A stretch of 61,510 nt of DNA, counting the filler, from Jimgerdemannia flammicorona (taxonomy: Eukaryota): assembly GCA_003990765.1 (NCBI GenBank). It is 3 parts of 3 records of this genome, joined end to end, with 100 filler letters (N's around TTAATTAATTAA, not from the genome) between each part and the next. Parts side by side here need not be neighbours in the genome. Positions count along the whole stretch, not along the records: positions 41,078 to 61,510 come from RBNJ01001686.1; 2 more parts are not named here. One strand, given 5' to 3'. Below, in pieces: positions 24,613-59,000 of the stretch. Position numbers and translations under genes: made by a program. The notes below the pieces were generated by a model, which searched no databases, was not told where the DNA came from, and saw only the letters and a program-made list of their open reading frames with translations. Position 1 is the first letter of the stretch. The number at the start of each line of letters is the position of its first letter.

Positions 24613-24645
<33 letters not shown>
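23644..24645 (+). mobile_element. ~1 kb non-autonomous poly(A) retroposon (SINE-like), complete with TSD
   Basis: 15-bp TSD aaggcattgaaggca at 23629-23643 and 24644-24658; AATAAA at 24581; A tail 24614-24645; no credible ORF. Confidence 0.85.
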
Positions 24646-24650
<5 letters not shown>

Positions 24651-24949
24651 TGAAGGCAGAAGTACTTGCAGTTTTCCTGGAGAAGAAGGGATATGAGGTT
24701 GATAAGAAGAGAAAGGCTGAGTTAGCAATGGTGGTAGAGGAGTGGGCAGCCTACTGTTGGATAGAGCATTATGGTCTACAGCTCTGGTAGGATGCTTGTC
24801 AGAAGTATTATAAGAATTTTGAGGAGAAAAAGGAGAGAGAACTAAATGAGCTTCTGGGGGAATTAGAGGCAAAGAGAATTGAGGAGGAGAAGCAGGCTGC
24901 AGAATATATCTTGGACTTAGCACAAGAGCATATAGAGGTGAAGTAGTAG

Positions 24950-27050
24950 AGAAAGTGTTGGGACTTTTCATCTAAACATTTTTCCCAATGAACAGTACAA
25001 TCAAAAATTTTTCTCTTAATGTAAATAGACTACAAGGTTCAGAGCAATATAAGAACATTTTTACTTAGCTTTAAGGATTAGAGACTGATCTCTTCTTGCT
25101 GTAGGATATATGGTATAAAGATGAGATAGATCAAGTAAAGTGAACTAGAGAATAGAGAGGTACTATAGCTTGGATTGGTAAAGCAGCAATTTTGGTACAG
25201 AATGATAAGGGAGATCTAGGGTGAATCAGGAATTGGGAAGACTGCTTAATATGGGGAAAATGGTATAGACTTTGGTGGGGGTTACTGAGAGTAGGCTCTT
25301 GCTACTACCTAGTAGTCAGAGATAAGAGAATTATATAGATTAAGGAGCTCTTAGAGGAGGGTACATTCTTGGAGGATGGGGTAGATATTCTGGATAATAA
25401 CTTTAATATAGTGTGAAACCCTCAGTTAGATAGAACTGATAGAAAGAGAAGTGCTGGTAATAGAAGTGATGGCCTCTTAACTCCTCTCTGCTGACTAAGA
25501 AGAAGTTATAGGACCTATGGGTGGAGGACATCTAGGGAACGATTGCAAGCTGGAGATAGGAGAGTGTAATAGTAGGTATTTGGTAGATAAGGTTGAAAGA
25601 AGCTGTAAGGGAATACTGGGGGAGAGCTGGAAGAGATACTGAGAGGGAGAAAAGGAAAAAGGTGAGGTGTACTTTGTAGAGAAGAGGGTGGCTATCTAGA
25701 GTGAGATTCTTAGAAGTTAAGGAGGTTGCTATATCTCTCTAGCAGGCAGAGTATTGATTTTGAATACCTACTGATTTTCTAAGCTATAGTATATTGCATA
25801 TCACTTGGACTTCTCAGCTTGGGTGGTGAAGAGGATGATAAAGCTAGCTAGGGATTGGATTTGAACTAGGAAGCAGTCACATATCAGTTGCGATATCCTA
25901 TTATTATCAGTGGTTAGAGAAGGTCTAGGACTGGTGGATCTTCCTAAGAGGCCCAATAGCCTGAGAGCTTGGTGGCTGAAGCAGGTCACTGAATTGTAGG
26001 GAGTAGAATAGGTTCTACTGATACAGAAGATATAGAAGATAAGATTCTCCTCAAGAGGGTCTACAGGAGACTTACTATTGCTGGTAGGTCAGGGTGGGAG
26101 CTGTCAGTAGATATAAAAGCTTCTAATAGAGGATAGTAGATAAAGCTCATCATATTGACTTATACTGGTATAGTAATGAAGGAGAGATATATACTATAGG
26201 GACTAGCAATATAGCAATAGGACAGACTGCTTTTGTGAGGTCCTCTATTGGCTGAGTTTGACATTGATGATAGAGTAGAGTATCAGAGGATACTAAGTCA
26301 GGATATCTGGACTGCTAGTTGGCAAGCAGTAGGGATTGGGAAGGAGTTGGACTGGGCAGGAGTCTGATCATAGAGTATTTGAATGAGGAGGTAGCTGCCT
26401 TCTAAGTTCTGGGTAGTATAGTAGAGGATGCTATAGAGGAATATCATATTGAATTTCCACACTGAGTATCTGGTGGATGGGGGGCAACTGGATAGCAAGG
26501 AGTGTTACAATATTAGACAAATTGAGAGATTTGTATAGATACCAGAACATTGGTTAAGAGAGTATAAAGTTCTGAGAGACTTTTGGTTAGCCTAGGTAAA
26601 TAGATGTGGGTTAAGAGGACACCAGAAGGAGAGAGAGTTCAATAGGAAGATTTGAGAACTAGGTTAGTGGGAGATGTAGGCAATGAATGGTCTACTGTTG
26701 AGTGGGTTTTGGTTATATGGATAGGGCTGGCTAGATATTGACTCTTTGTTTTTGAGAAGAGCCAATAATTAGTTCTGCAAGAGAAGTTGTTAAAATAGGA
26801 GGGATTGTTGGGAGACTTATTGACAGGACAATGGGTCAGTTGGGATTCCCAGGGTGAATACTATCACTAACTAGTTTTAGGAATCTATAAATAGAGTGGT
26901 GAGCAGATTGTAATAGTTAATGATCTAGTGGTCTTTAATTATAAAAAAGTAGTAATAGAGAAGGCCCCCTAGGGGGATTGGATAGGGGCAGGCTCAATGT
27001 ATTTATATTGGATAGATGGGTGTATTAATAAAGGAAGAAGTCTAAGAGAC

Positions 27051-27090
<40 letters not shown>
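24950..27090 (+). mobile_element. L1/Tx1-like LINE relic, apparently internally deleted
   Basis: ORF2 start MNSTIKNFSLNVNRL (APE motif SLNVNGL) at 24988, EGLGLVDL at ~25920, decayed C-terminal Cys region ~26450-26600, AATAAA and poly(A) at 27055-27090; RT core not recognisable. Confidence 0.6.
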
Positions 27091-27091
<1 letters not shown>

Positions 27092-29190
27092 CAATCAATA
27101 CAAAATAAATAATTCAATATACTCTCAATAATAAAAGAAAACAACCTTTCTCCAGTAATATTCAGGTAACTCAAACTTCAGACAATACTTCCAACAATAT
27201 TTTGATAAAAAGGTTCTAATATTATAGTGAGTAACAAGCTTTCAGAAAATCATACAGTACAGGTCAGCTCTAGGACCTTTGACTGGCAGTATGTAGAGTA
27301 GAGACAAGGTGCAGGCTTTGGGATGCCTAGTGTCTCTCTGAGGGAGAGAGGGGCTGAAGTTGATAGAAGAGGTGGAATGAGATAGTAGAGAAATAGACAG
27401 TTGACCTTTACTAATAAGGTCAAGATGAGAGCTCAGACAAAGAGACTGAAGAGATAGCTAGACCTGAAGAAGGAGAAAGCAGCTACTGGAAAGAAGAAGG
27501 GAGGTCCTCTGGTGTGCCAGTATAGTAGGACAGATAGTGTAGTAGCTAGGGGAGTGACTAATGATAGAAGTATGATAGGCAATCTGGAAAAAAATCTAAA
27601 TAGTCTGACAGATGATATAATGGACCTGGTAGTGGCTCTATTGCCCCAGAGGTCAAACTCAAAGTTCACAGCTATCTTGTGCTTTTGGAGCTTAGAAGTA
27701 ATAGCAAAAATAGTTCTAGGAAGCAGGTGAGTAGAGCAGTATCCATGAAGTTTCTGAAGGGATTGGAAGGAGAGGAAGTGGGCTTTGAAGAGGCAGGGAT
27801 ATTAGAGAATATATTGTAGACTAGGCTGACTGTTGAAGAGGTATATGTTTTAATTGTGTACTGCTTGAGATTAGACCCCAGGGTGGTACAATTGTTGATA
27901 AAAGTGGTACTCATGATAATAGCTATGGATATAAGGAGGAGAGTCAAGGAAGTCATGGCTAAGTTTAGAGAGAAAGTAGATATTGAGTTTCAGATCCAGG
28001 AAGGGATCTTATTCAAAAGTGGAGATATTTATGTCTGGATTCAGTTAGTAGAGAAGAAAGCTACCAAAAAGGCTATAGATTAGCCTTGGGAAATGAGGGT
28101 AAAGGGGAGTAAAGAAGAGGAGGAGAATTTACTAGAGATACTGGAGGAGCTGAGTGGAGTAGTATAGTAGAGAGTGAAGGCTTGAAAAATATATATAGAG
28201 TCAATATATTTGGAAGTAGTAGATGGAAAGTAGATCCACATAGACAAGAGGTAGGGAGAAAGGTCTTAAGGATATAAGAGGTAGAGAGAGCTGCTGACAA
28301 AGCTAGAGAGTAGAGTAAAGAAGAATACTGATGAAACTGAAAATATAGGGAATATCAAAGTGAGTGTCTGAGCTGGTGAAGTAGGAGAGAATATAGAGAA
28401 GGAGAAGTGACCAAAGAGGTAGCTAGCAATGATCTGTATATAGATAGTATATTTGGAATCTAGAAGGACACCTCTCACCTTATTAGATAGCCTTGAGGAG
28501 CCAGGTTGAGGAGAATATACCTATGTATGGGGCTCAGCAGGTATACTTTGGAGTTTCAGAGATAGCAAAAGAGTGATAGATAATAGTAGCTAGTAAAGAT
28601 GAACTAGTAGATATCCCAGAGGAGGAGTGAGATTTAGATATAGAAAGGCTGGCTACTCTGGGAAGAAAGGATATGGGAAACTCACTATGGATTTGCTAGA
28701 TAATGAATAACTTTATAGCTAAAGAGTTGAGAGAAGAAGACCTAAGAGTGATGAGTGATGAATATTGGTCATAGATTTTGTATAGCAATAGAGTAGTGGA
28801 GGTACTGAAAGAGATACTGTAATTTTTCTAGAAGAGAAAGAGTATAAGATTGATAAGAAGAGAGAGACTGAGTTAGTAGCTGTAGCTAGTGAGCAGGCCA
28901 CCTTCTGTTGGGCAGAGCATCATAGCTACCAACACTGGGGAGGCAGGAGACCAAAGGAATGGTGGCGGAGGCACTGGGGGCATTTGGTGAGATGGTTGAC
29001 TGATTAAAGCTTTAACAGGAGGCCTGTTTAGAGTATTATAAGAACTTTAAGAAAAAGAAGAATAGTGAACTTACTGATCTATTAGTTAGATTGGAGAATA
29101 AGAGGCTTAAAGAGAAGGAGGTGAATATTGAATATAATCTGAACTTAGTATAGGAGATGATGAATATAGAGCAATAGAGGATATGCTTGA
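27091..29190 (-). mobile_element. RT-less telomeric partner element, copy B (extreme 3' end lost at the L1 insertion)
   Basis: Collinear with 21840-24800 (TTLGSNLKQYTIKT); 27109-27133 aataattcaatatactctcaataata matches the LINE 3' UTR aataattcaatgcgctctcaacaacg (~30573). Confidence 0.65.
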
Positions 29191-30253
29191 TACGAGCTCC
29201 ATTCTCCTCTACCTTACCAGTCACAAGGTTTGGTAGGTGACCTTCCGAGTCCCCTTTCCCCTATTATTACCCCCTCTACCTCAGGTTGGTTTGCTGTGCC
29301 TGCAGGGGCATGGTGGGAGGAGGGCAATGGTGATGAGTTGCCCCTTTATCAGTGCCGGATCGGTGTCTTCTCTACTTTTTCGTAGTTTCTGGTGTCTTCG
29401 GCTGCATCTGGAGTGTATCCGTTTTGGTGCAGCACCTTCTTCCTTTTGCTGTTGCCAACAAGGTGCTGTCTCGGTGTATCTCAGGCTACATAGGGAGTCG
29501 GCCGACCTTGGGCATCAAGTGCTCAGTGTAGGTTACCTGCAGGTCCTCGGTGCCTATAGTGGGGCCCTCTGGCTTTGGCGAGCTTCCCGGCGAGTGTGGT
29601 TCTGGCGTAGGTGACTGTTTTTTGGGTGATGTCAGGTTGGGAGGGGAGATGGCTATCACAGATAGGTGGAAAGGCAATTACGGTGAACCAGTGGGGTGCC
29701 AGGCTGGGAGCGGTCATTGGGGCTCGGGCGGACAATATTTCGGTGGGGCCTTTCAATTGGCTGGTGGAGGGTGGGGTGGTGCAGAGGCCGGCGTTCTGGC
29801 TGTACCCAACTGGAACCGGGAGCTGATGCGGCAACGTGATCAAGGCCTGCAGGCTTGGGGAGTGGGGTCTTCCTCATTTGGCAGTACCCAACTGGAACCG
29901 GGAGCTGACATGGTAACATGATCAAGGCCCGCAGGTTCGGGGAGTGGGAGTGGGGTCTCTTTAGGCCCTAGTCCATGTATAAGTCCTTTGAGGAAGGTGC
30001 TGCATATACGTCCTTTACTCACCCGCTTTGAATCTACTTTGCTCTCTGTTGGTTGGTTGGGGGGTTTTTTCTTTGCCTCGGGCTTTCTTTTGGGGTTCGG
30101 GGGGCTATTCTTTATTCAGTCCCAGTGCTGCTAGATCTGACGCGTAGGTGTGCTCTCGCGTGTAAACGATGATCCAGCCCTAGTGAGCAGACAAGTCTAG
30201 TCTATATCGTGGGGGTCGACATAGCCGGTATTTGACAGGCATAGCTGGAGCGG
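29190..30253 (+). mobile_element. Third copy of the ~1 kb retroposon family (divergent 3' half, cut off by a telomeric tail)
   Basis: 29209-29760 is highly similar to 23660-24210; internal repeats caactggaaccgggagctga. Confidence 0.75.
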
Positions 30254-30661
30254 TAGGGTTAGGGTTAGGCTTCAAGTAAGAATTTATTCATTGTAGAGAA
30301 GACAAGTGACATCGGAGCAACAAAAGACAAAGACTCCTAAGATGAGAAAAGCAAAACAAGACCAGCGAAGTAAACAACTAGCTATAAAGTACAAACAAGG
30401 GCCAGGGAGGTGACCACCCTATGGACGGGCTGGATAAAACCATTTTGTCATGGCCGTAGGGATAATGAATGCAAAAAGCAGAGAAAAGAAAGACTAAAGT
30501 ATAATACACATTCGCCCGGCGCCTACTACAAGAACAATCGTCAACCAAACACCAAACGACTGACATGAAATGAATAATTCAATGCGCTCTCAACAACGGT
30601 GGGAACCAACCAGGGTGAATGAGGGGAAAGAAAGAAATAAAGAAAATATGCAATCGCTCGA

Positions 30662-33600
30662 TCACCCAAGCATCTTCGTAATCTCGGTTAGGTAGAACCC
30701 GACCGCGAGGTGGCCACCAGAATTACACATTGCGTCGATAGCATGGTAGGCTGTCTCGTGAAGAGCGTGAAGAGGGTAGGCGCGAAGTTCCTCCTGCCAT
30801 TCGTCACTGGTAAACCAGTCGAGCTGTTCATCTTGATCTGAAGAACCTCAGAAAGCAGAATACGAACTGTCGAGAAGACCGCACCTGAGGAGATGGCCAC
30901 GATGAAACTTATCTCCACAGGGGCAGGGGCGGGGTTGGCCAAAATAGCCATAGCGCCAGGCGAGGGCAGAACACACAAGCCGGGGGGGGAAGGAGAGGAT
31001 GCGATCAGTGCCCCACGACCATAAATGGCCTTTGGGGGTAATGTACCGAATGAGAGTCTGGGAGGAGGAGGCCCATTCCTGCAACAGCTGATCCCGGAGG
31101 AAGGACTGGAGGAAGGAGCGGAGCGAGCGAGTCTTGCGGACCTGGGGACGGAGGTCTCAGTACCAGTCGAGGAAGTCAAGCCAGGAGGTCCAACGCCGGA
31201 ATTTGTCAATAATAGAACCCGGGGGACGCGTGACAAAGCGCTCGCTAAGAGGGCCGATGGGGTTGTTGCCCGACTTGCTACACCAATCCAGGTGGGCTTG
31301 GAACATGCAGCAGAGGTCAGACGTACGACGAAGGAAGGAAGGGAGGCCGAGAATCGAACTGCCGAGCAAGGGACGGCCAGAAAATCCAACCTCCCAGGTG
31401 ACAGCGTCATCAAAGACCTGCTTGGGACGCTTCAACGCCTGAAGCCCCGTGGTAGTAGCTGGACAGGAAGCTCGTAGAAGGGGGAGGCCATACTCCAGCT
31501 GAGGCCTGATGAAAGTTTGTACGATGGCCAGCTTGACCATTGGTGACCAGAGGGGACTACGGGCACGGCAGAACCCAAGAGTTCGTTCCGCCTTCGCCGC
31601 ATTCTGTAACGCCAGGTTGACAAAGTCAAACCCTTTGTTGGTGTACGGCATGCCCAGGTACACGTAGGAGGTGGGTTGCAGGCAGGGTTCGCCCCCAATC
31701 AGCACAGTACAGTCAGCAGGGCCAACATAACTACACTTCTTGGGATTGAGCTCCATACCGTTCACCCGGAGCCAATCTTCGCAGAAATCAACCATCCTTT
31801 GCCCTTCCGCGGCAGTGCGGGGGGTGAGGGCGATATCATCAGTAAAGAAGAGCCCGAGGGGAAAGTTGTACTCCTTGAACTGCTCATCAAAGGAGGCGGC
31901 AAGGGGATCGATAAAGACATCAAAGAGCTAGGGGGAGAGGAGGGAGCCCTGGAAAAGGCTGCACTCAGTGGGGACCGAAGGGGTGACGAGGCCATTAACA
32001 ACCACCTGGTAGAAACAGTGGTTAAACAGGCTTCGGATAATACTAAGGAGGGCCGCATCGGCACCTCACGCCTCAAGGCGGGAAAGAATGCGCTTGAGGG
32101 GGACTCAATCGTAAGTCTGCCAGAGGTCCAAGAAGACATAGTGGCCCCATCCCTTAGCCCACGTCTCGTGTTATAACAGGACATGAGAAAGGGACGAGAA
32201 GTGGGTTCGGAAGCCGCCTTGGCAGCGCGACATTTCTGTCAGGCCACTTCGGCTCTTGACGTATCCTTCCAAACACTGCTCGAAGAGTCTACGAAACATT
32301 TCAGTCAGAGCAATAGGGCGAAATCCATCGATCGTATGCGATTCCTCCTTCTTGGGGACCAGGGTGATGATGGCTGAGTTCTAGTGGCGAGGAGTGAGCC
32401 CCCAGACCACACACATCTGGAAGAAGAACGAGAGGGCTTTCGAAAGGCTACAGGGGGCGTCCTTCTCACCCGCCATCATCTGAAGGATCCGGACGTGCAA
32501 GGAGTTGGCACCACATGCCTTAGAGAGGGGGTAGCTGCAGACAGCACTCCAAACCGCAGGTTGGTCAAACCAAGACTGCAGCCCAAGAGCGCCCACGCCA
32601 AGTGGGAAGACATCTTCAGAGTCATCGAGACGAAGGGAGGCATCTGGCTGGCTGAAGATAGTGGTAAAGTGAGCAACCACGTCATCGAATACAGGGACAT
32701 TGAGGGAGCGAGACTGAAGGGGTGCGGAGGGGGTGGAGCGATACGCTCGCTTAAAACCACAGATGGCATCGGAGACCGAAGATGCACTGCGGAGGAGGTC
32801 ATGCCTAGGGAGCAGCGCTGCTCTGATTTCTCTTGTATCATACGAGCCAAGAATGTCCTCACAGACAGACTGCAGACCAGAGGTCAAAAGAGCATCAAGG
32901 GAATCCACAAACTGCTGGCGATCATCCACAGAGCGAAAGCCAGCGATATGGTCCCTAACAGAGTAGATAGACTTGATAACGGTATCGCAAATAATATCCG
33001 CTGATTCCCGAAGGTGAGCTTGAATGATCGGGTCAGTCAGGTATCTCGCAGAGTAACAACGGACGCCAGCCAAGGCAGCAACTGGCGAGGGGGAGAAGGG
33101 GAAGGAGACAGTGAGGAGGGAGGGGAGATCGGTAGCGACAGGAGGAGTGGAGCAGGTGAGGGACGTGTGGAGGGACGTGGTGGTGAATGCGTGGTCAACG
33201 AGTGTGGATCCAGCCACTGGGGTCAGGTGGTTCAACAACCACGTCATCAAGGAGGTGTCGACGACATCCATCCGATCGCGAGGACCAGAGTTGACGTCAC
33301 CAAGGCGGGCACCGAAATGGGTATTGATGTCACCGATCAAGAGGGCCTTACCCGGGAAGGGTCCAGACACTAGATCACGGAAACCACCAATGGGAAGAGA
33401 GGGGGGGGCGTAAACCCCAACCAAAGCCAGGCCCTGGAACATGAGCCGGATATGGAAGGGGTCGGCAGAGGACTCGGAAATGAGGGGGGCGAAACGGTTT
33501 GACACAAGGACCACGAGACCACCATTCTGGTGACCCACGATTCTGTGCGACGCCGGAGGGGAGGACATGTGAATGAGCGGAGAGGGATGCAGTGGGATGT

Positions 33601-33709
33601 GCCACGTTTCACATACGAAAATAACATCGAGGGCAGGACCAATCAACCGACTGAGCACATCGAACTTGTCCTGGGGTAGTCCGTGTGCATTGAGGAATCC
33701 GACTCTCAT
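30662..33709 (-). pseudogene. LINE copy 1 ORF2: APE endonuclease + reverse transcriptase + C-terminal CCHC-like motif (~1015 codons, a few stops/frameshifts)
   Basis: MRVGFLNAHGL, FVCETW, GDIN, VDHAF (APE); QGGFR, QGSLLSP, FTDD (FADD in copy 2), LNPKKC, YVYLGM, FIRPQLEYG (RT); CPCGDKFHRGHLLRC. Confidence 0.92.
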
Positions 33710-35204
33710 TGGGGGCTAGGTGCGTTAGCGCCAACAGCGTGGGAAGCACCTGAGGCAGAAGCTTCAGCTTCCAAATCCATCGCCATGTCACCCATCACAG
33801 CCACAGTACCACCTGCCTTCAAAGCAGGGCCGGCCATCGGGGAGGCGAAGGAGGGGAGGGTGAGGCCGAGTTCTGCGGCACATGCTCTGTAGAAGGTCTG
33901 TACCTCAGGCCTCTTCGTAGTGGCTTCGCCTGTCAACTACCGGACCTGAGCATGGAATGATTGGAGAACCTATGTCTTCACGGCCTCCGTGGCGTTCTTG
34001 TTGTGTGGGAGTATAGGGTCCTAGGCCGACAGCACCGAGAACCCAAGCGCCTTCATCTTCTTTTGGAACGCCGTGACATAATCAGGGCAGAGAAGAAATT
34101 CGATGGTCGATGCCGAAACATACAACATGTTGAGGACCTTTGACAACATCACATGGACATCATACAAGTTCTTCCGGATTTGCCCGATCTTCAGATGGGC
34201 GAATCCGTCAATGTAGACGTGCTGCAGCCTAGCGCCCTTCTCAGTCGGCAACAAATGAGAGGTCGGCTTGCGGGTTATGCGTGAAAGGGCGGTGGCAGCA
34301 GCTGCCCTTTCCATCTTGGGGTAGGCCTGGGTCCTATCTTTGATAGAGACCTTCTTGGCGGCGGCGGCGTACGATTTGGGGGGGGCGGGGGTCGAAGCGG
34401 GGGATGAAGACGGACCGGCGGCACTGGGTCCCACAGGCGTAGCCTGGGGCACTGGCCCGGGAGCCTTGGCCTTGTCCTTTTTAGGGGGCGCAGCTTTAGC
34501 AGCCGGAGGTGCAGCCGTGGGAGTTACCTCCTTTGGCAGCGCACCAGACTGCGACGCAGCGGCTTTAGCGGCCCGCTTATCTACTCGCTTCTGGGCCTTC
34601 GACCGCGTGTTCGCGGCAGGACCAGTAGGAGGGGGGGCCGAGGACTTGGGGGGGGCAGGTGTGGATGGGGCAATGGGGGTACTTCCCGAAGGAGCACCAG
34701 ATGTTGAGGGGGCGGTGGGCGCATGATGCGCAGCAAGCTGCGCCATCAGCTGGGCGTTGATCTTGGCCAGATCGGCTACTTGAGTCAGAAGATCTGAGAT
34801 CTGCTTCCTTATCATGGCCATCTCTATGACCAGATCGGGTTCGGCTGAGGGGCCTGCACGATTGGCCGTTGGGGTCATTCCCAAACTAGTGTTCAGGCGA
34901 CCACGCTTGTTCTGGTTGAGGGGCGGGGGTGTGGGAGAATAGTTGATGTGCTGGGTATCGTGGTCCGAATCGGAAGAGATCGCAATCTCTTCGTCATCTT
35001 CCGCGTCGCACAGAGAAGATAAATATGCCGATATCGGTCGTGCATCCCGCACGACCTGCACATCACCATAAGGCTACCCTCGCCGAAGCCAAGGGAAAGG
35101 AGACCGATGCCGTGACATTCAGCGCAGCGGAGCGAGGTGCCGAAGCGCGCGAAAAGTTGGGTGGCGTTGCCGTCATCGCCGACGACGGAGGAGGTGGCCG
35201 ACAT
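33706..35204 (-). pseudogene. LINE copy 1 ORF1 (gag-like; CxxC..CxxC, coiled coil, Pro/Ala linker, C-terminal domain)
   Basis: ORF pieces 34893-35204, 34021-35061 and 33706-33936 join after one 1-bp frameshift and nonsense changes; the stop overlaps the ORF2 start (ATGA). Confidence 0.8.
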
Positions 35205-35821
35205 TGCCGAAATAGGCAGAGGTGTGTTTGTTTGTTTTTTTGAAATTGAGAAACATGGGTCACATGACCTTTGTTTGTATAACGAAAAAATAATGTTTAA
35301 GGGGGGTATTTATATCTGATGAGAGGCTTAGCTAATCAAAGTGACTGCTTTCTTAATTTGGAATAGCTTCGGGCCGTAAAGCCGAGTCTAACCAAATGGG
35401 GAAATCACATGAGTGGTTAGGGTTAGGCTTCAAGTAAGGATTTATTCATTGTAGAGAAGACAAGGTACATCGGAGTAACAAAAGACAAAGACTCCTAAGA
35501 TGAGAAAAGCAAAACAAGGCCAGCGGAGCAACAGCTAGCTAGGAAGTACAAAACAAAGGCCAAAGAGGTGACCACCCTATGGACGGGCTGGATAAAACCA
35601 TTTTGTCACAGCCGTAGAGATAATAAATGCAAAAAGCAAAGAAAAGAAGGGCTAAGATATAATATACATTCGCCCAGCACCAACTACAGGAACTGTATCG
35701 ACAACTAAAACACCAAACGACTGACAGGAAATGAATAATTCAATGCGCTCTCAACAACGGGAGAACCAACCAGAGCGAATGAGGGGAAAGAAAGAAGTAA
35801 AGAAAATGTGCGATCGCTTGA

Positions 35822-38800
35822 TCACCCAAGCATCTTCGTAATCTCGGTCAGGCAGAACCCAACCGCGAGGTGGCCACCAGAATTATACATGGTGTCTATG
35901 GTGTGGTAGGCGGTTTCGTGAAGAGCGTGAAGAGGGTAGGCACGAAGTTCCTCCTGCCATTCGTCACCGGTAAACTAGTTGAGCTATTCTTCTCAATCTA
36001 GAGAACCTCGGAAAGCAGAATACGAACCGTCGAGAAGACCGCACCTGAGGAGATGGTCATGATGAAACTTATCTCCACAGGGGCAGGGGCGGGGTTGGCC
36101 AAAATAGCCATAATGCCAAGCGAGAGCACAACGCACAAGCCGGGGGGGGAAGGAGAGGACACGGTCGGCTCCTCATGACCGCAAGCAGCCTTTGGAGGTG
36201 ATGTACCGAACGAGAGCCTGGGAAGAGGAGGCCCATTCCTGCAGCAGCTGATCCTGAAGGAAGGACTGAAGGAAGGAGCGGAGCGAGCAAGTCTTGCGGA
36301 CCTGGGGACGGAGGTCCCAGTACCAGTCGAGGAAGTCAAGCCAAGAGGTCCAACGCCGGAACTTGTCAATGATAGAACCCGGGGGACGCGTGACAAAGTG
36401 CTCGCTAAGGGGACTGATGGGGTTGTTGCCCGACTTGCTACACCAATCCAGATGGGCTTGGAACATGCAGCAGAGTTCAGACATACGACGAAGGAAGGTA
36501 GGGAGGCCAAGAATCGAACTGCCAAGCAAGGGCCGGCCAGAAAATCCAACTGCCCAAGCGACAGCATCATCAAAGACCTGCTTGGGACGCTTCAACACCT
36601 GAAGCCCCGTGGTAGTAGCCAGATAGGAAGCACGTAGAAGGGGAAGGCCATATTCCAGCTGAGGCCTGATGAACATTTGTACGATGGCCAACTTGACCAT
36701 TGGCGACCAGAGGGGACCACGGGCGCGGCAGAAACCAAGAGTACGTTCCGCCTTCGCCGCATTCTACAACGCTAGGTTGACAAAGTCAAACCCTTTGTTG
36801 GTGTACGGCATGCCCAGGTACACATAGGAGGTGGGTCGCAGGCAGGGTTCGCCCCCAATCAGCACAGTACAGTCGGCTGGGCCAACATAACTACACTTCT
36901 TGGGATTGAGCTCCATACCATTCGCCCGAAGCCAATCTTCACAAAAATCGACCATCCTTTGCCCTTCCGCGGCAGTGCGGGGGTAAGGGCGATGTCATCG
37001 GCAAAGAAAAGCCCGAGGGGAAGTCGTACTCCTTGAACTGATCATCAAAGGAGGTGGCGAGAGGATCGATAAAGACATCAAACAGCCAAGGGGAGAGGAG
37101 AGAGCCCTGAAAGAGGCCATGCTCAGTGGGGACCGAAGGGGTGACGAGGCTATTAACAACCACCTGATAAGAACAGTGGTTGAACAAGCTTCGAATAATG
37201 CTAAGGAGGGCCACATCGGCACCTTGCGCCTCAAGGCGAGAAAGAATGCACTTGAGGGGGACTCGGTCGTACACCTGCCGGAGGTCCAAAAAGACACGGC
37301 GGCCCCATCCTTTAGCCCACGTCTCGTGCGAAAGCAAGACATGAGATAGGAATGAGAAGCGGGTTCGGAAGCCACCTTGGCAGCGCGACATTTCTGTCAG
37401 GCCACTTCGGCTCTTGACATATCCTTCCAAACACCGCTCGAAGAGTCTACGAAACATTTCAGTCAGAGATAGGGCGAAATCCATCGATCGTATGCGATTC
37501 CTCCTTCTTGGGGACCGGGGTGATGATGGCTGAGTTCCAGCGGTGGGGAGTGAGCCCCCAGATCATGCACATCTGGAAGTAGAATGAGAGGGCTTTCGAA
37601 AGGCTACAAGGGGCATCCTTCTCACCCGCCATCACCCGAAGGATCCAGACATGCAAGGAGTCAGCACCACACGCCTTTGAGAGGGGGTAGCTGCGGATAG
37701 CTCTCCAAACTACAGGCTGGTCAAACCAAGACTGCAGCCCAAGAGCTCCCATGCCAAGGGGGAAGACGTCCTCAGAGTCATCGAGACGGAGGGAGGCGTT
37801 CGGCTGCCCGAAGATAGTGGTAAAGTGAACAACCACATCATCGAACACCGGGACGTTGGGGGAGCGAGATTGGAGGGGGGCGGAGGGGGTGGAGTGATAT
37901 GCTCGCTTGAAACCACGAATGGCATCAGAGACTGAAGATGCACTGCGAAGGAGGTCCCGCCTAGGAAGCGGCGCTGCCCTGATTTCTCTTGCATCATACG
38001 AGCCAAGAATGTCCTCGCAGACTGACTGTAGACCAGAGGTCAAAAGGGCGTCAAGGGAATCTACAAACTGCTGGCGATCTTCCATGGAGCGAAAGCTGGC
38101 AATGTGGTCCCTGACAGAGTAGATGGACCTAATAACGGTATCGCAGATGATATCTGCTGATTCCCGAAGGTGGGCTTGGACGACCGAGTCGGTCAGGTAT
38201 CTCGCAGAGTAATGACGGACACCTGCCAAGGCAGCAACCGGCGAGGGAGAGAAGGGAAAGGAGATGGTAAGGAGGGAGGGGTAGTCGGTAGCGACAGGAG
38301 GGGTGGAGCAGGTGAGGGACGCATGGAGGGACGCGGTGGCGAATGCATGATCAACGTGTGTAGATCCAGCCACCGGGGTCAGGTGGTTCAATGACCACGT
38401 CATCAGGGAGGTGTCAATGACATCCATCCGGTCGCGAGGACCAGAGTTGACGTCACCAAGATGGGCACTGAAGCGGGTATTGATGTCACCGATCAAAAGG
38501 GCCTTACCCGGGAAGGGTCCAGACACCAGATCACGGAAGCCACCAATGGGAAGAGAGGGGGGGGCGTAAACCCCAACCAAAGCCAAGCACTGGAATATGA
38601 GCCACATATGGAAGGGGTTGGCAGAGGACCCGGAAACAAGGGGGGCGAAACGGTTTGACACAAGAACCACAAGACCACCATTCTGGTGACCCACGATTCT
38701 GTGCGATGCTGGGGAGAGGACATGTGAACGAGCGGAGAGGGACGCAGCGGAATGTGCCACGTTTCACATACGAAAAGAACGTCGAGGGCAGGACCAATCA

Positions 38801-38864
38801 ACTGACTGAGCACATTGAACTTGTCCTGAATTAGTCCGTGTGCATTGAGGAACCCAACTCTCAT
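35822..38864 (-). pseudogene. LINE copy 2 ORF2 (APE-RT, frameshifted)
   Basis: Same motifs as copy 1, including FRPIS, QGGFR, FLDLRQVYDRV, QGSLLSP and FADD. Confidence 0.9.
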
Positions 38865-40298
38865 TGTGGGCCGGGTGCGTTAGCACCACCAGCGTGAGAA
38901 GCACCTGAGGCAGAAGCTTCAGCTTCCAAATTCATCGCCATATCGCCCGTCATGGCCACAGTACCACCCACCTTCGAAGCAGGGCTGGCCAATGGGGGGG
39001 CGAGGGAGGGAAGGGTGAGGCCGAGTTCCGCGGCCCATGCCTTGTAGAAGGTCTGCACCTCAGGCCTCTTCGCAGTGGCTTCGCCTGCCAACTGCCGGAC
39101 CCGAGCATGGAAGGATTGGAGTACCGGTGTTTTCACGGCCTCTATGGCATTCTTGTTGCGTGGGAGGGCAGGGTCCCAGGCCGAAAGCACTGAGAACCCG
39201 AGTGCCTTCATCTTCTTTTGGAATGCCGTGACATAATCAGGGCAGAGCAGGAATTCGATGGTCGACGCCGAGACGTACGACATGTTGAGAACTTTTGACA
39301 ACATCATATGGACGTCGTACAAGTTCTTCTGGATCTGCCTGATCTTAAGATGGGCAAATCCATCGATGTAAACGCGCTGCAGCCTAGCACCCTTCTCAGT
39401 CGGCGACAAATGAGAGGTCGGCTTGCGAGTCATGCGCGAGAGGGCGGCTGCGGCAGCAGCCCTTTTTGTCTCAGGGTATGTCTGGGTCCTATCTTTGATA
39501 GAAACCTTCTTGGCGGCGGTGGGTCCTGCAGGCGTAACCTGGGGCACTGGTCCAGGGCCTTAGCTTCGCCCTTTTTAGGGGGCGCGGCTTTGGCGGCCGG
39601 GGGTACAGCTGTGGGAGTTGCCTCCTTTGGCGGTGCACCAGACTGCGACGCGGTGACTTTAGCAGCCCGCTTATCCGCTCGCTTCTGGGCCTTCGACCAC
39701 GTGTTCGCGGCAGGACCAGTAGGAGGGGGGGCCGAGGACTTGGGGGGGGCGGATGTGGAAGGGGCGGCGGGGGTACCTCCCAAGGAGGTACTATACAGCA
39801 ATGAAGTCGGGGCGGCTGACCTTTCGGCAAGCTGTGCCATGAGTTGGGCGTTGATCTTGGCCAGTTCGGCCACTTGAGTTAGCAGATCCGAGATCTGCTT
39901 CCTCATCGCGGCCATCTCCGTGACCAAATCGGGGTCGGCTGAGGGGCCCGCATGACTGGCCATCGGGGTCATTCCCAAACTAGTGTTCGGGCGACCACGC
40001 TTGTTCCGATTGAGGGGCGGGGGCGTGGGAGAGTAATTTTAGCGCTGGGTGTCGTGGTCTGAATCAGACGAGATCGCAATCTCTTCGTCATCTTCCGCAT
40101 CGTGCAGGGAAGATAAATATGCCGATATTGGTCGTACATCCCCGCACGACTGCACATCGCCATAAGGCTACCCTTGCCGAAGCTGAGGGAGAGGAGACCG
40201 ATGCCGCGACATTTGGCGCAGCGGAGCGAGGCACTGAAGCGCACGAAGAGATAGATGGCAGTGCCGTCATTGCTGATGACGGAGGAGGAGGCCGACAT
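38861..40298 (-). pseudogene. LINE copy 2 ORF1 (frameshifted)
   Basis: MSASSSVIS...RCAKCRG; RKQISDLLTQVAELAKINAQL; RLQRVYIDGFAHLK; ATGA overlap with ORF2. Confidence 0.8.
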
Positions 40299-55409: not shown

Positions 55410-58400
55410 CTACAAGCTTATCCTGTTCAAAATCCGCGCTTCGGCTGGTGCGATGACTCCCTTGTCAACACCACTCGCTACAGGGGAAGGCACGGGATGT
55501 ACGCGCGTGGTTGTCAGCTGGAAGGCCAAACAGAAGAAGGCAAAAGTAACGCGTTTGGTTCCTACGTACATTGTAGGTTCAGGTTCTGCAGGCCCGTGTT
55601 CGTTTTTAGCACGTCGGCTAGTGCGATGACTCCCTTCTCCCCAACATCATTTCCTAAATAGGAACGCACGGGATGTACGCGCGCGGTTGTCAGCTGGAAG
55701 GCCAAAGAGACGAACATAAAAACGTAACACGCTTCATTCCTATGTACCGCCTAAGTTCAGGATCTGCAGGCCCATGTTCGATTTCAGCGCATCGGCTAGT
55801 GCGATGGCTCCCTTCTCGCCAACTCGATTGGCTACAGGGGAACGCACAGGATGCACGTGCGCGTGGTTGTTAGCTGGAAGGCCAAACAGACGAAGGCAAA
55901 AGTAACGTGCTTCGTTCCTACGTACCGTATAGATCCAGGTAGAGCAAGCTCGTGTTCGTTTTCAGCGCGTCGGCTAGTGCGATGACTCCCTTCTCCCCAA
56001 CACAATTCCCTACAGGGGAACGATCGGGATGTACGCGCGCGGTTGTCAGCTGGAAGGTCAAACAGACGAAGACAAAATGTAACGCGCTTCGCTCTTACGT
56101 ACTTCCTAGGTTCAGGTACTGCAGGCCCGTGTTCGATTTCAGCGCGTCGGCTAGTGCGATGGCTCCCTTCTCACCAATAATGTTAGCTACAGGGGAACGC
56201 ACGGGATGTACGCGCGCACGGTTGTCAGCTGGAAGGCCAAACAACCGAACGCAAAAATGTAACATGCTTCGTTCCTACATACCATGTAGGTTCAGGCACT
56301 TCAGGCGCGTGTTTGTTTTAAGCGCGTCGGCTAGTGCGATGACTCCCATGTCGTCAACAATATTCACTACAGGGAAACGAATTGGATGTGCGCGCGCGGT
56401 TGTCAGCTGGAAGGTCAAACAGATGAAAGCAAAAACGTAACGCGTTTCGTTCCTACGTACGGCTTAGCTCCAGGTCCTGCAGATCCGTGTTCGTTTTCAG
56501 CACGTTGGCTAGTGCGATGGCTCCCTTCTCGCCAACACCATTACCTAGAGGAGAACGAATGGAATGTGCGCGTGCGGTTGTCAGCTGGAAGGCCAAACAG
56601 ATGAACGCAAAACGTAACGCGTTTCGTTCCTGCGTACGGCCTAGGTTCAGGTCCTGCAGGCTCGTGTTCGTTTTCAGCGCGTCGGCAAGTGCGATGGCTC
56701 CCTTGTCGTCAACAACATTCACTACAGGGGAACGCATAGAATGTGCGCGCGCGGTTGTCGGCTGGAAGCCCAAACAGACGAACAAAAAAACGTAACGCGT
56801 TTCGTTCCTACGCACTGCCTAGGTCTAGGATCTGCAGGCCCGTGTTCGTTTTCAGCACGTTGGCTAGTGCGGTGGCTCCCTTCTCGCCAACACGATTACC
56901 TACAGGAGAACGAACGGAATGTACGTGCGCGGTTGTCAGCTGGAAGGCCAAACAGACGAACGCAAAAATGTAACGCGTTTCGTTCGTACGTACAGCCTAG
57001 GTTCAGATTCTGTAGGCCCGTGTTCGTTTTCAGCGCATTAGCTAGTGCGATGACTCCGTTCTCGCCAATATAACTCGCTACAGAGGAACGCACGGGATGT
57101 ACGCGCGTGCGATTGTCAGCTGGAAGGCCAAATAGACGAACGCAAAATCGCAACGCGCTTCGTTCCTACGTACAGCGTAGGTTCAGGTCCTGCAGGCCCG
57201 TGTTCGTTTTCAGCGCGTCGGCTAGAGCGATGGCTCCTTTCTCCCCAACATCATTTCCTACAGGGAATGTACGCATGCGGTTGTCAACGGAAGATCAAAC
57301 AGACGAACGCCAAAACGTAACGCGCTTCGTTCCTACGTACGGCCTAGATTCAGGTCCTGTAGGCTCGTGTTCGATTTCAGCGCGTCAGCTAGTGCGATGG
57401 CTCCGTTCTTGCCAACACCATTATCTACAAGGGGAATGTACGCGCGCAGTTGTCAGCTGGAAGGCCAAACAGATGAATGCAAAACGCAACACGTTTCGTT
57501 TCTACGTACTGCCTAGGTTCAGGTCCTGCAGGCCCGCGTTCGTTTTCAGCGCGTTGGCTAGTGCGATGGCTCCCTTTTCGCCAACACGATTACCTACAGG
57601 AGAACGAACGGAATATATGCGGGCGGTTGTCAGCTGGAAGGCCAAACAGACGAACGCAAAAACGTAACGGCTTTGTTCCAACGTACAACCCAGGTCCAGA
57701 TTCTGCAAGCCCGTGTTCGTTTTCAGCGCGTCGGCTAGTGTGATGGCTCCCTTCTCACCAATAACATTCCCTACAGAGGAACGCACGGGATGTACGTGCG
57801 TATGGTTGTCAGCTGGAAGGTCAACAGACGAACGCTAAAACGTAACGCGCTTTGTTCCTACGTACAGCCTAGGTCCAGATTCTGCAGGCCCCTGTTCGTT
57901 TTCAGCGCGCCGGCTAGTGTGATGGCTCCTTTCTCGCCAACAACGTTCCCTACAGAGTAACGCACAGGATGTACGTGTGTGCGGTTGTCAGCTGGAAGGC
58001 AAAAACAGCGCGCTTCGTTCCTACGTACCGTATAGGTTCAGGTTCTGCAGGCCCGTGTTCGTTTTCAGCGCGTCGGCTAGTGCGCTGGCTCCTTTCTCCC
58101 CAACACCACTCCCTATAGGAGAACGCGCAGGATGTACGCGCGCGGTTGTCAGCTGGAAGGCCAAACAAACGGACGCAAAAACGTAACGCGCTTCGCTCCT
58201 ACGTACCGCCTAGGTTCAGGATCTGCAGGCCCGTGTTTGATTTCAGCACATCGGCTAGTGCGATGACTCCCATATCCCCAACATCATTTCCTACATAGGA
58301 ACGCACAGGATGTACGCGCACGGTTGTCAGCTGGAAGGTCAAACCGACGAACGCAAAAACGTAACACGCTTCGTTCCTACATACCACCTAGGTTCAGGTT

Positions 58401-59000
58401 GTGCAAGCCCGTGTTCGTTTTCAGCGCGTCGGCTAGTACGCTGGCTCCTTTCTCGCCAATACTACTAACTATAGAGATAAAATGAATAGATTGTGGTTGT
58501 CAACTGAACACCAAATTAAATGAATCGAAAATATAATGTGGTTCATTCCTACATACAGTTTACATTCAAGGCTTGCAGGCTTGTGTTTATTTTCAGTGCT
58601 TTGGCTAGTACATGGGCTCCTTCCTCGTCCATGTAAAAATCTACAGAATTTATAAATGTGGCTGTCAGCTGACACACTGGACGAACGAACGCAAAAAAAT
58701 GCAACGTGGTTCGTTCCTACACTGGTGGACCAACGAATCCGCAATATTTTTCCAAAACGCCTCGCCAAATATGGATACATCATCATATGTATTGAAGGTT
58801 CTTCCGCGACAAAGGTGCACCTCCTTCCAGAGCAGTGGGAGGGCGGCAGCGCGCCAGTCAAGTGAGACAAGTGAGCAATTGAAGAGGTCGGTACGATTGA
58901 GATAATGCCCAATGGCCTCTCCTTTTGGGAGAAATTTGAAGATGGCAGTGAGCGTTTCGAAAGGAAGTCTTGGGGAGGTCATAATAGTGGCGAGATGCAT
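55410..59000 (-). CDS. F-box + 18-19 ribonuclease-inhibitor-type (28-aa) LRR protein, 20 exons, ~613-619 aa
   Basis: Exon 1, 59000(or 58982)-58721: LPFETLTAIFKFL...DLFNCSLVSLDWRAAALPLLW (F-box-like). 84-nt exons: 58640-58557, 58468-58385, 58290-58207, 58112-58029, 57949-57866, 57770-57687, 57593-57510, 57424-57341, 57257-57174, 57077-56994, 56899-56816, 56721-56638, 56544-56461, 56366-56283, 56186-56103, 56009-55926, 55831-55748, 55653-55570. Last exon 55477-55410 (TAG). All introns GT..TAG with a (C/T)TGAC branch site; the spliced frame is open. The exon 1 donor (GTAGGA) is the least certain. Confidence 0.88.
55440..58720. repeat. Tandem array of ~178-bp exon+intron units
   Basis: The unit ...gttgtcagctggaaggccaaacagacgaacgcaaaaacgtaacgcg..cgttcctacgtac...gttttcagcgcgtcggctagtgcgat... 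recurs about 19 times. Confidence 0.95.

Follow-up and report, generated by a model that had tools for sequence, protein, structure and literature searches.

The minus strand of a 61,510-nucleotide stretch of Jimgerdemannia flammicorona DNA (the window) carries a 20-exon gene at 59000..55410 that is probably a chimera: an F-box joined to a solenoid of 18 ribonuclease inhibitor (RI)-type LRRs, made of tandemly duplicated exon cassettes whose contact residues appear to be under diversifying selection. An F-box exon is followed by 18 LRR exons and a short last exon. The reading frame is open across the spliced exons for 619 codons, and the product consists of 93 residues of F-box and linker, 18 full LRRs and one partial LRR. 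The parts of the gene are listed below with the basis for each; X1 and X2 are two public runs whose contigs were mapped onto the gene.

58721..59000, minus strand: exon 1, F-box domain and short linker, 280 nt, ATG at 59000 (frame, donor, Pfam)
58641..58720, minus strand: intron 0, 80 nt (alignment with array introns; X2 contig joint)
58557..58640, minus strand: LRR exon 1, 84 nt, the most diverged unit (gene model, framework comparison)
58385..58468, minus strand: LRR exon 2, 84 nt (gene model, nhmmer exon profile)
58207..58290, minus strand: LRR exon 3, 84 nt (gene model, exon profile; X1 joint to LRR exon 4)
58029..58112, minus strand: LRR exon 4, 84 nt (gene model, exon profile; X1 contig joint)
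57866..57949, minus strand: LRR exon 5, 84 nt (gene model, nhmmer exon profile)
57687..57770, minus strand: LRR exon 6, 84 nt (gene model, nhmmer exon profile)
57510..57593, minus strand: LRR exon 7, 84 nt (gene model, nhmmer exon profile)
57341..57424, minus strand: LRR exon 8, 84 nt (gene model, nhmmer exon profile)
57174..57257, minus strand: LRR exon 9, 84 nt (gene model, nhmmer exon profile)
56994..57077, minus strand: LRR exon 10, 84 nt (gene model, exon profile; X1 and X2 joints to LRR exon 11)
56816..56899, minus strand: LRR exon 11, 84 nt (gene model, exon profile; X1 and X2 contig joints)
56638..56721, minus strand: LRR exon 12, 84 nt (gene model, nhmmer exon profile)
56461..56544, minus strand: LRR exon 13, 84 nt (gene model, exon profile; X2 joint to LRR exon 14)
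56283..56366, minus strand: LRR exon 14, 84 nt (gene model, exon profile; X2 contig joint)
56103..56186, minus strand: LRR exon 15, 84 nt (gene model, nhmmer exon profile)
55926..56009, minus strand: LRR exon 16, 84 nt (gene model, nhmmer exon profile)
55748..55831, minus strand: LRR exon 17, 84 nt (gene model, nhmmer exon profile)
55570..55653, minus strand: LRR exon 18, 84 nt (gene model, nhmmer exon profile)
55410..55477, minus strand: last exon, 68 nt including the TAG stop; degenerate partial LRR, C-terminal end (nhmmer exon profile, E 2.5e-8)
55478..58556, minus strand: 18 array introns, 79–96 nt, alternating with the LRR exons (gene model, alignment, TRF)

Every LRR exon is exactly 84 nt long (18/18) and encodes one 28-residue RI-type LRR. 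All 19 introns are GT..AG, all 19 lie in phase 1 and their lengths span 79–96 nt. Defined by one exact exon length, one exon per LRR and one intron phase, this is an exon-per-repeat cassette array. Exon 1 also ends in phase 1, its final base T being the first base of junction codon 1. A sequence-only reading had started from coordinates 55477 and 58721; they mark, to the base, where the last exon begins and where exon 1 ends. The array was built by tandem duplication of a 178-bp unit (84-nt exon plus about 94 nt of intron), and each repeat is therefore a cassette of phase 1-1. Neighbouring cassettes meet within the codon of LRR-motif position 8, which directly precedes the conserved Asn.

TRF over the array gives a period of 178 with 14.6 copies and 81% matches. 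The array introns are conserved like the exons (mean pairwise difference 0.15–0.18) and have a consensus 5′ end GTACGTAGG, an internal CTGAC that we take to be branch-site-like, and a 3′ end YAG. LRR exon 1 has a GC content of 0.42, and unit 1 is off consensus at 22/72 framework bases and 34/87 intron bases. An nhmmer search of the window with the exon profile matched nothing outside the 19 predicted places, which all lie on the minus strand, and found no second copy. A two-unit (356-bp) super-repeat from TRF was rejected: it has the same 81% matches, and the tree of repeats shows only a weak pairing of units 11 and 13. The plus-strand ORFs at 55952..56440 and 57107..57667 run antisense across exons and introns alike and were set aside as repeat artefacts. 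Rfam found no RNA family over the whole window. The gene sits in an AT-rich region with retroelement fragments.

Among the joints listed, contigs from X1 and X2 bridge at least 5 of the 19 introns at the predicted borders. Intron 0 is bridged in X2 (record 13), where 58640 is joined to 58721; intron 3 in X1 (record 6) with 0–1 other letters; intron 10 by contigs of both runs; intron 13 in X2 (record 10); and intron 16 in X2 with two junction bases differing. Exon 1 is covered at 58721–58989 by X1 contigs and at 58721–58978 by X2 contigs. X1 and X2 are presumed to be RNA by guess only (word shares 0.17 and 0.06), and an intron-less DNA copy is formally a possible source. In total, 149 X1 and 125 X2 contigs map onto the 3.7-kb stretch at no less than 92% likeness; many fit two places (69/149 and 58/125), and there are mosaic joints. 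We conclude that the locus holds a genuine gene that is spliced and comes from an Endogonales-like (Mucoromycota) fungus.

Exon 1 scores above the curated domain thresholds for F-box membership. Pfam F-box-like (PF12937) matches with E 6.9e-9 and 35.8 bits (cut-off 24.3), and F-box (PF00646) with 23.7 bits (cut-off 20.5). Three single LRR exons of 27 residues gave no Pfam match (0/3) because they are too short, and the Pfam family evidence covers exon 1 and database homologues. The closest relatives, P0001 and P0002 of J. flammicorona, have 67% identity over exon 1 and carry F-box-like plus LRR_6. Among 1.84 billion representatives, only 15 relatives of exon 1 have E≤1e-3. F-box-like was found in 13/14 of the exon 1 relatives scanned and LRR_6 in 0/14, and the species was J. 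flammicorona in 9/10 of those looked up. In metagenome contigs, no relative was found by exon 1 (0/163 pattern matches confirmed) or by alignment A1 (0/40). The exon 1 F-box family thus appears, from its sequence relatives, to be restricted to Endogonales.

Other members of this family have a cysteine-containing-like C-terminus, which points to the gene being an exon-shuffling chimera. P0001 and P0126 are alike solely over residues 1–92, a likeness that stops where exon 1 ends. Intron 0 is homologous to the array introns in the alignment but lacks the 4 bases with which they begin; it differs from the intron consensus at 23/78 aligned bases, and its donor in use is the internal GT (bases 5–6) of the array consensus 5′ end. 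The fusion of the Endogonales-restricted F-box exon with the LRR array thus probably took place within the intron of an LRR unit. The gene is a clean example of exon shuffling, with the fusion point still readable within the intron. The F-box would couple a target bound by the LRR solenoid, the putative target-binding part of the protein, to an SCF ubiquitin ligase; both Skp1 binding and the substrate are putative.

[quoted passage not shown] RI-like (RNI-like) LRRs are described, in the available part of the source, as beta-alpha units of 28–29 residues in which LxxLxLxx(N/C)xL is followed by a helix. Repeats of the present gene fit this pattern, with L at repeat positions 22, 25 and 27 in 17–18 of 18, N at position 2 in 14/18 and V/I/M at position 4. 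They do not fit the cysteine-containing FBXL class of about 26 residues. By sequence, the LRRs of P0001 match chains of ribonuclease inhibitor (RI 1dfj, E 8e-26), NOD2 and NLRP, and a fold comparison finds the same chains (top match NOD2 5irl, E 2.4e-7). Pfam found no NACHT or NB-ARC domain in exon 1, and the remainder of the 619-residue product is fully taken by LRRs, leaving no space for a NOD domain.

Within the repeats, variation is concentrated at four positions. Across the 18 repeats, position 1, encoded by the split junction codon, is the most variable (11 residues, entropy 3.24 bits), followed by position 3, after N (8 residues, 2.89 bits), position 24, after LQ (6 residues, 2.29 bits), and position 28, before the junction (7 residues, 1.94 bits). 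The remaining 24 positions have entropies of at most 1.34 bits. Mean pairwise amino acid identity is 0.66 for all 18 repeats and 0.69 for repeats 3–18, rising to 0.74 and 0.77 without the four positions. The same positions vary among the repeats of the J. flammicorona homologue P0001. Much of this pattern had been described in the sequence-only reading, and its description stands. Each intron follows the first base of the codon before the conserved N of LxxLxLxxN, and the junction residues Y,F,G,G,G,W,C,N,R,S,C,M,R,L,A,R,A,G,S are reproduced at 19/19 junctions. The residue sets given for the positions after LQ, before the junction and after N agree with our per-position table for the 18 repeats, and the helix ALADALK is nearly fixed.

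The four codons also stand out from the introns. Between units, introns and framework codons differ by about 15–20% and the four codons are near saturation. Of 177 aligned columns (84 exon and 93 intron), the 7 most variable all lie within the four codons (hypergeometric P 2.4e-8 for the top 6). Mean diversity is 0.554 at the 12 hypervariable bases, 0.176 at the 93 intron columns and 0.198 at framework third positions, bearing out the prediction that these codons vary more than the adjacent introns (Mann–Whitney P 6e-7). Framework third positions do not differ from introns (P 0.59). A diversity of 0.6 or more is reached by 7/12 hypervariable bases and 0/93 intron columns, and all four bases occur at 6/12 hypervariable, 2/72 other exon and 3/93 intron columns. 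The transition/transversion ratio is 0.74 at hypervariable bases versus 2.67 in introns, a contrast that speaks against a plain mutational hot spot. At codon 3, diversities are 0.71, 0.69 and 0.22 at the first, second and third positions.

To measure selection, we used a codon model on the ML tree of the 18 repeats with branch lengths fixed from the introns, which serve as the neutral yardstick and may not be fully neutral. Codon 1 had a relative nonsynonymous rate of 164 (saturated) and codon 3 one of 15.9, and codons 24 and 28 had rates of 5.0 and 5.5; all four were above neutral with P from 7e-19 to 7e-5. At the other 24 codons the rate was at most 2.1, and none was significantly above 1. 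A star tree gave the same picture. When the synonymous rate was left free at each site, only codon 3 was individually significant; codons 24 and 28 had P 0.27–0.48, and codon 1 was too saturated to evaluate. Pooled Nei–Gojobori counts over the four codons gave pN 0.56 and pS 0.53, a ratio of 1.06, which is uninformative because the codons are saturated and hold only 2.6 synonymous sites. The dN/dS analysis answers differently by yardstick: calibrated on introns, the codons evolve at 5 to more than 100 times the neutral rate, and measured within the codons the pooled ratio is about 1.

Selection for residue diversity at the four codons is supported. Of the diversifying selection that had been proposed from the sequence, the excess over introns and the location of the sites hold up and the dN/dS part is left open. 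The comparison is of 18 paralogous repeats in one gene copy, a design that does not distinguish diversification still under way from differences that are old and have been kept. Most bootstraps in the repeat tree are below 70, and distances in the exon framework are uncorrelated with those in the flanking introns (Mantel r −0.09 to 0.0, upstream and downstream introns). The uncorrelated distances and the weak tree fit a star burst and also short-tract gene conversion; conversion, if present, would break the rate model.

Structural placement comes from the AlphaFold model of the homologue P0001, not from a model of the present protein. Its mean pLDDT is low (57.9), with 68–84 in the LRR part and under 50 over residues 1–77, where the F-box part is unusable. 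In this model 4/4 strands begin at repeat position 24 and end at 26–28, the helix runs from position 5, and strand and helix recur with a period of 28. Hypervariable repeat positions 24, 28, 1 and 3 correspond to LRR-motif positions 3, 7, 8 and 10. As far as the available source text goes, motif positions 3–5 form the strand of the concave sheet and the ascending loop comes next. In agreement with this, the model puts the four variable sites on the beta-strand that helps to form the concave sheet and in the loop directly following it. The expectation that they would map to the concave face is borne out for the sites in the strand, but motif positions 8 and 10 strictly belong to the ascending loop. 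On the model, then, the fast-evolving sites appear concentrated on the ligand-binding face, with a within-codon dN/dS of about 1. We infer that selection may favour different residues in each repeat at ligand-contact positions, giving a horseshoe with a varied binding surface.

The contrast between the four codons and the rest of the unit could arise in other ways. We think it unlikely, though worth serious consideration, that the repeats are ancient, each keeping its own contact residues under purifying selection, with conversion or unequal crossing-over homogenizing framework and introns; the hypervariable contrast would then be an escape from homogenization rather than fast substitution or an arms race. 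Mosaic conversion would leave uncorrelated Mantel distances and a star-like, weak tree, as seen here. The edge units are the most diverged, as in arrays homogenized in the middle, and concerted evolution with positive selection is a published model for fungal NLR repeats (PMC4986451, from the part of the article available). The ‘synonymous’ positions of the hypervariable codons are saturated too (local pS 0.53), but saturated third positions are equally expected after many amino acid replacements. Conversion tracts would also have to stop short, repeatedly, of codons lying within 16 nt of the intron on one side and within 8 nt on the other, and the four positions vary between the repeats of P0001 as well. 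That selection is absent, the four codons being either free of constraint or hot spots of mutation beside the splice sites, in a tandem repeat that was amplified recently and may have no function, is strongly disfavoured and very improbable. The within-codon dN/dS of about 1 and the AT-rich surroundings with retroelement fragments would suit it, but unconstrained sites should resemble introns and third positions (0.18–0.20) rather than reach 0.55, the low transition/transversion ratio is unlike a transition-driven hot spot, and the third position of codon 3 stays near the background while its first two do not. Frame and length are kept in 18/18 exons and splice sites in 19/19 introns, and contigs without the introns exist.

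The sequence-only reading also proposed ‘junctional diversity’, in which joining any two cassettes creates a new residue. Its arithmetic is true, and nothing shows that cassettes have been re-joined. As a functional process, it would have exon skipping or germline intronic unequal crossing-over re-join cassettes into new binding surfaces, which we regard as improbable. Because 18/18 cassettes are symmetric (phase 1-1, 84 nt), skipping never shifts the frame; no codon varies more than the split one, with its 11 residues in 18 repeats; and non-adjacent forward joins could yield P, D, T and V beyond the residues observed. Exon skipping in modular LRR exons is known for human NLRP3 (PMC6642158, from the portion available). 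The contigs contain many long ‘skip’ joints, but the same contigs have ‘goes back’ joints that are impossible by linear splicing, multi-mapping is heavy, and letters are replaced at several joints; at an 806-base skip, three junction letters fit the intron side and not the start of LRR exon 17. The skip joints were rejected as evidence of exon skipping on these grounds; they are best explained by sequence from other repeats or from paralogues that was aligned to the closest exon. The remark that exons ending in T joined to exons starting GA would give a stop is accurate: 12 of 171 non-adjacent forward exon joins do so, all of them T + GA, and skipping LRR exon 2 alone would create TGA. There is thus no sign of selection for free joinability, and one re-join alters one residue only. 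A fixed border within the beta-sheet is also reported for vertebrate NOD/NLRC/NLRP genes (PMC6642158, same portion), so the split hypervariable codon looks like a by-product of the cassette architecture, in which gain, loss or skipping of a unit would each alter one contact residue. The reading we prefer is still the F-box and LRR chimera with selected contact residues.

Known systems share parts of this design; the comparisons below follow the portions of the sources that were available. [quoted passage not shown] The present gene is like them in its fixed-length exon per repeat, uniform intron phase, junction amino acid drawn from two exons, and proposed origin by exon shuffling or unequal crossing-over; unlike them it has 84-nt exons in phase 1, is fungal and has an F-box in front. 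In Ectocarpus ROCO (LRR-GTPase) genes each LRR is likewise a single fixed-length exon, of 72 nt, with exon shuffling, and positively selected sites were reported to map to the concave face of what the authors consider candidate recognition receptors (Mol Biol Evol 2012, PMC3341825); a follow-up reportedly appeared in 2024 (PMC11378527). Their LRRs have 24 residues and belong to another class, on a ROC-COR GTPase, and their introns contain inactivated and inverted exon copies (PMC3341825), whereas the exon profile search of the window found none here. Vertebrate NOD/NLRC genes have one 28-residue LRR per exon with the border at a constant place in the beta-sheet (Nat Commun 2019, PMC6642158); they and NLRP genes share with the present gene the RI-type 28-residue class and frame-preserving exons. 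This likeness concerns exon architecture and a border fixed within the beta-sheet; a literature search on intron phase in 84-bp NLR exons yielded no usable source. The present gene has an F-box in place of the NACHT domain.

In fungal NLRs, WD40, ANK and TPR repeats are kept alike with few positions diversifying, and shuffling with concerted evolution is proposed to generate specificities (Genome Biol Evol 2014, PMC4986451). As far as the available part of that survey goes, the repeats are attached to NACHT or NB-ARC and no LRR was found, and high internal conservation is defined as more than 85% identity over at least 100 residues (PMC4986451). The repeats described here are alike in tandem with few diversifying positions, as in those proteins, but their amino acid identity of 66–69% is below the 85% threshold. 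Fungal NLR repeats with high internal conservation were reportedly also the subject of a PLoS One 2007 study (PMC1805685). FBXL proteins, the F-box/LRR substrate receptors of SCF, use cysteine-containing LRRs of about 26 residues. Like them, the present gene has its F-box at the N terminus and then an LRR solenoid that presumably binds the substrate; it differs in its RI-type repeats of 28 residues. F-box/LRR receptors of this kind are reportedly the subject of a review (PMC7729025). Assembly of the lamprey VLR type, in which an incomplete germline gene is completed by somatic copying of flanking cassettes, is unlike the gene here, which is complete and open in the germline with no flanking cassettes within the window.

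The receptor design itself is already known in ciliates, brown algae and vertebrates, where exon-per-repeat LRR arrays with fast-evolving binding residues are discussed as generators of recognition diversity. In the literature we found no LRR cassette array or F-box/RI-type LRR family described for Endogonales or Mucoromycota. The present gene shows that this architecture also arose in a fungal lineage that diverged early and forms mycorrhizas, where a ubiquitin-ligase adaptor takes the place of the nucleotide-binding switch. Within one compact locus, its introns moreover provide a built-in neutral standard against which selection on the repeat residues can be gauged.

It is conceivable, though we hold it to be rather unlikely, that the F-box-LRR cassette genes of Endogonales form a diversified intracellular ‘immune-like’ repertoire that tags variable foreign proteins for ubiquitination. 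The targets would then be proteins of endobacteria, viruses, competitors or plant hosts, handled without NOD-domain signalling. New specificities would come from point changes at four contact positions per repeat; phase-1 cassettes that are gained, lost or skipped would provide others, and every such event would also recode the split contact residue. On this view the numerous related contigs of X1 and X2 would belong to such a repertoire.

The gene is read from the minus strand of a tandem array with a period of 178 bp (TRF: 55436-58004 and onward, 14.6 copies, 81% matches). GC content in the array is 0.53, above that of its AT-rich surroundings. The gene model comprises the following features.

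59000..58721, minus strand: exon 1, from the minus-strand reading
between exon 1 and the last exon, minus strand: 18 LRR exons, each exactly 84 nt
55477..55410, minus strand: last exon, with TAG at its end

All 19 introns (79–96 nt) have GT..AG ends and are in phase 1, and each falls after base 1 of the codon preceding the conserved Asn of LxxLxLxxN. The spliced product has an open frame of 619 codons. Searching the whole window with a profile built from the 18 LRR exons gave 19 matches, at the 18 exons and the partial last exon, on the minus strand only. Two plus-strand ORFs, at 55952-56440 (162 codons) and 57107-57667 (186 codons), run antisense across array exons and introns; since the period of 178 bp is not divisible by 3, they are treated as chance products of the repeat.

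Splicing was assessed with contigs from two public sequencing runs of one organism (X1 and X2), which cover parts of the stretch and whose RNA nature is only guessed. Intron 0, between exon 1 and the first LRR exon, is removed in X2 record 13 (58560-58640 joined to 58721-58978). Intron 3 is removed in X1 record 6 (58055-58111 joined to 58206-58289, with 0–1 other letters), where the one-base offset is an alignment tie, and intron 13 in X2 record 10 (56283-56366 joined to 56461-56536). Both runs have a 94-base skip with ends CT..AC at intron 10 (56896>56991, cut +3), and intron 16 shows a 96-base skip (55829>55926) with two junction letters replaced. Among the joints listed, contigs match the predicted borders at 5 or more of the 19 introns. 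This is the pattern expected of spliced mRNA, with the runs presumed to be RNA; an intron-less DNA copy is a formally possible alternative. Summed contig depth in the two runs over 55570-58640 differs more than thousand-fold between neighbouring exons, and 149 (X1) and 125 (X2) contigs fall on 3.7 kb of array. Together these suggest that the source organism has numerous related transcripts or genes whose LRR cassettes are similar.

An F-box is encoded in exon 1 (PF12937, E 6.9e-9). Closest to this exon are two Jimgerdemannia flammicorona proteins (67% identity) that carry F-box-like and LRR_6 annotations. The sequence of one of these homologues, P0001, includes a translation of the same initial letters of intron 0, so the same junction is present in J. 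flammicorona. Non-LRR stretches lie between the F-box and the first LRR of P0001 and of the second homologue, P0002, and also inside P0002. The deposited models of both appear to translate through LRR-array introns, which gives these stretches, and annotation of these genomes probably under-represents such cassette arrays.

In sequence searches, the LRRs of P0001 match ribonuclease inhibitor (RI), NOD2 and NLRP chains, and a fold search with its predicted model returned NOD2, NLRP9, NLRP1 and RI. LRR relatives by sequence include ‘RNI-like’ proteins of Mortierellomycota, chytrids and dinoflagellates, as well as fish NLRC3. The 28-residue repeat is of the RI-like class, fitting its published consensus. 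Some of the closest LRR relatives combine NACHT (PF05729) with RI-type LRR_6, for example P0118 of Mortierella alpina and many unnamed ‘ena’ proteins. A 2014 survey of fungal NLRs (PMC4986451) reported none that bear LRRs.

A search of 1.84 billion representative proteins found only 15 relatives of exon 1 at E<=1e-3; a domain scan found F-box-like in 13 of 14 and LRR_6 in none of the 14, and 9 of 10 looked up were from J. flammicorona. At the C-terminus these relatives differ in kind and look like cysteine-containing LRRs, and similarity between P0001 and one such relative, P0126, is confined to residues 1-92, stopping where exon 1 stops. Intron 0 can be aligned with the array introns, minus the first four bases of those, so the donor used is the internal GT of the array GTACGTAGG. 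From the different C-terminus of the exon 1 family and this alignment, we take the gene to be a chimera, in which an F-box exon became fused to the LRR array within the intron of an LRR unit. The fusion predates the divergence of the window's organism and J. flammicorona.

Within the array, introns are conserved to the same degree as exons: mean pairwise difference is 0.15–0.18 in introns, and 0.19–0.22 (synonymous) and 0.11–0.14 (nonsynonymous) in the 24 framework codons. The tree of units is star-like and weakly supported, with unit 1 the most diverged and most AT-rich, and distances of exon framework, upstream intron and downstream intron are uncorrelated. The star-like tree and uncorrelated distances fit a burst of unit duplication, continuing homogenization, or both.

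Retroelement fragments show that the gene's surroundings carry transposons; GC content there is very uneven. At 7449-9048 (plus strand), one ORF has a dUTPase (E 1.8e-20) and a second has RVT_1 and RNase H (E 1.6e-22); a further RVT_1 ORF lies at 36939-37484 (minus strand, E 2.9e-8). GC skew across the 8 kb at 22001-30000 is strong and constant (+0.35 to +0.40), with a GC content of 39–46%; TRF found only one short 82-bp repeat there (29797-29948), and a Pfam scan of a 151-residue ORF gave no match. The GC-rich block at 30001-40000 (53–58%) has many long minus-strand ORFs, the largest of 442 residues; six of the seven scanned matched no Pfam family, the seventh being the RVT_1 ORF at 36939-37484. 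This block may be a degraded large element.

Four codons of the repeat are hypervariable: the intron-split junction codon (position 1) and positions 3, 24 and 28. Across the 18 aligned repeats they carry 11, 8, 6 and 7 different residues, respectively, with entropies of 1.94–3.24 bits against at most 1.34 elsewhere. All 19 junction residues listed in the sequence-only reading are identical to those of the gene model; its residue sets at the other variable positions recur in the aligned repeats, and the helix segment is nearly invariant, as it had stated. Variability is also well above that of introns (mean diversity 0.554 at the 12 hypervariable bases versus 0.176), while framework third positions (0.198) do not differ from introns (P 0.59). 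Among 177 columns, the 7 most variable are without exception hypervariable bases. Columns in which all four bases are seen number 6 of 12 at hypervariable sites versus 3 of 93 in introns, and the transition/transversion ratio is 0.74 versus 2.67.

The same reading had proposed diversifying selection at these sites. On the ML tree, a codon model whose branch lengths were set by the introns gave nonsynonymous rates relative to neutral of 164 (saturated), 15.9, 5.0 and 5.5 at codons 1, 3, 24 and 28 (P 7e-19 to 7e-5); a star tree gave the same picture, and the other 24 codons do not exceed 2.2. Against this, the Nei–Gojobori within-codon ratio at the hypervariable codons is 1.06. With a free site-specific synonymous rate, codon 3 alone reaches significance (P about 1e-4); codons 24 and 28 do not, and codon 1 is too saturated for the comparison.

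Numbered by the LRR motif, the four sites fall at positions 3, 7, 8 and 10. According to published LRR geometry, motif positions 3-5 make up the concave-sheet strand, and the ascending loop comes next. The AlphaFold model of P0001 has strands that start at repeat position 24 and end at 26-28 (4/4), and a helix that starts at position 5. The motif geometry and this model would therefore place the sites along the concave sheet and the rim leaving it, so that the proposed concave-face location applies to some sites and others are on the rim. The model is of a homologue, with an overall pLDDT of 57.9 (68–84 in the LRR part). Ribonuclease inhibitor uses the same motif positions to contact its ligands. 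These results are best read as selection for diversity at four contact positions.

The split codon had further been taken as a source of ‘junctional diversity’. Since every cassette is symmetric, gaining, losing or skipping a unit leaves the frame intact and recodes one contact residue; of 171 possible exon joins, 12 create a stop codon, with TGA on skipping LRR exon 2. That joining changes one residue and sometimes yields a stop is borne out, but we found no evidence in the X1 and X2 contig joints that cassette re-joining is used. Long-skip joints were rejected as isoforms, given the ‘goes back’ joints alongside them and the replaced junction letters. Contigs fitting two places number 69 of 149 (X1) and 58 of 125 (X2), and the long-skip joints point to other repeats or paralogues. 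Exons that each encode a single 28-residue LRR, all bounded at the same point in the beta-sheet, are already described for vertebrate NOD/NLRC genes (PMC6642158). The split codon follows from the cassette architecture, and a part in generating diversity is hypothetical.

Related arrays have been published: Tetrahymena has LRR arrays with exons of exactly 90 bp, introns in phase 2 and a residue named the ‘junction amino acid’, and in Ectocarpus ROCO genes each LRR has its own 72-nt exon, with positively selected sites on the concave face (PMC3341825). [quoted passage not shown] Literature searches on Endogonales or Mucoromycota turned up neither an array of this type nor a family that pairs an F-box with RI-type LRRs. 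Exon-per-repeat LRR arrays are known; what is new here is one that is fungal, coupled to an F-box, in phase 1 and built of 84-nt exons.
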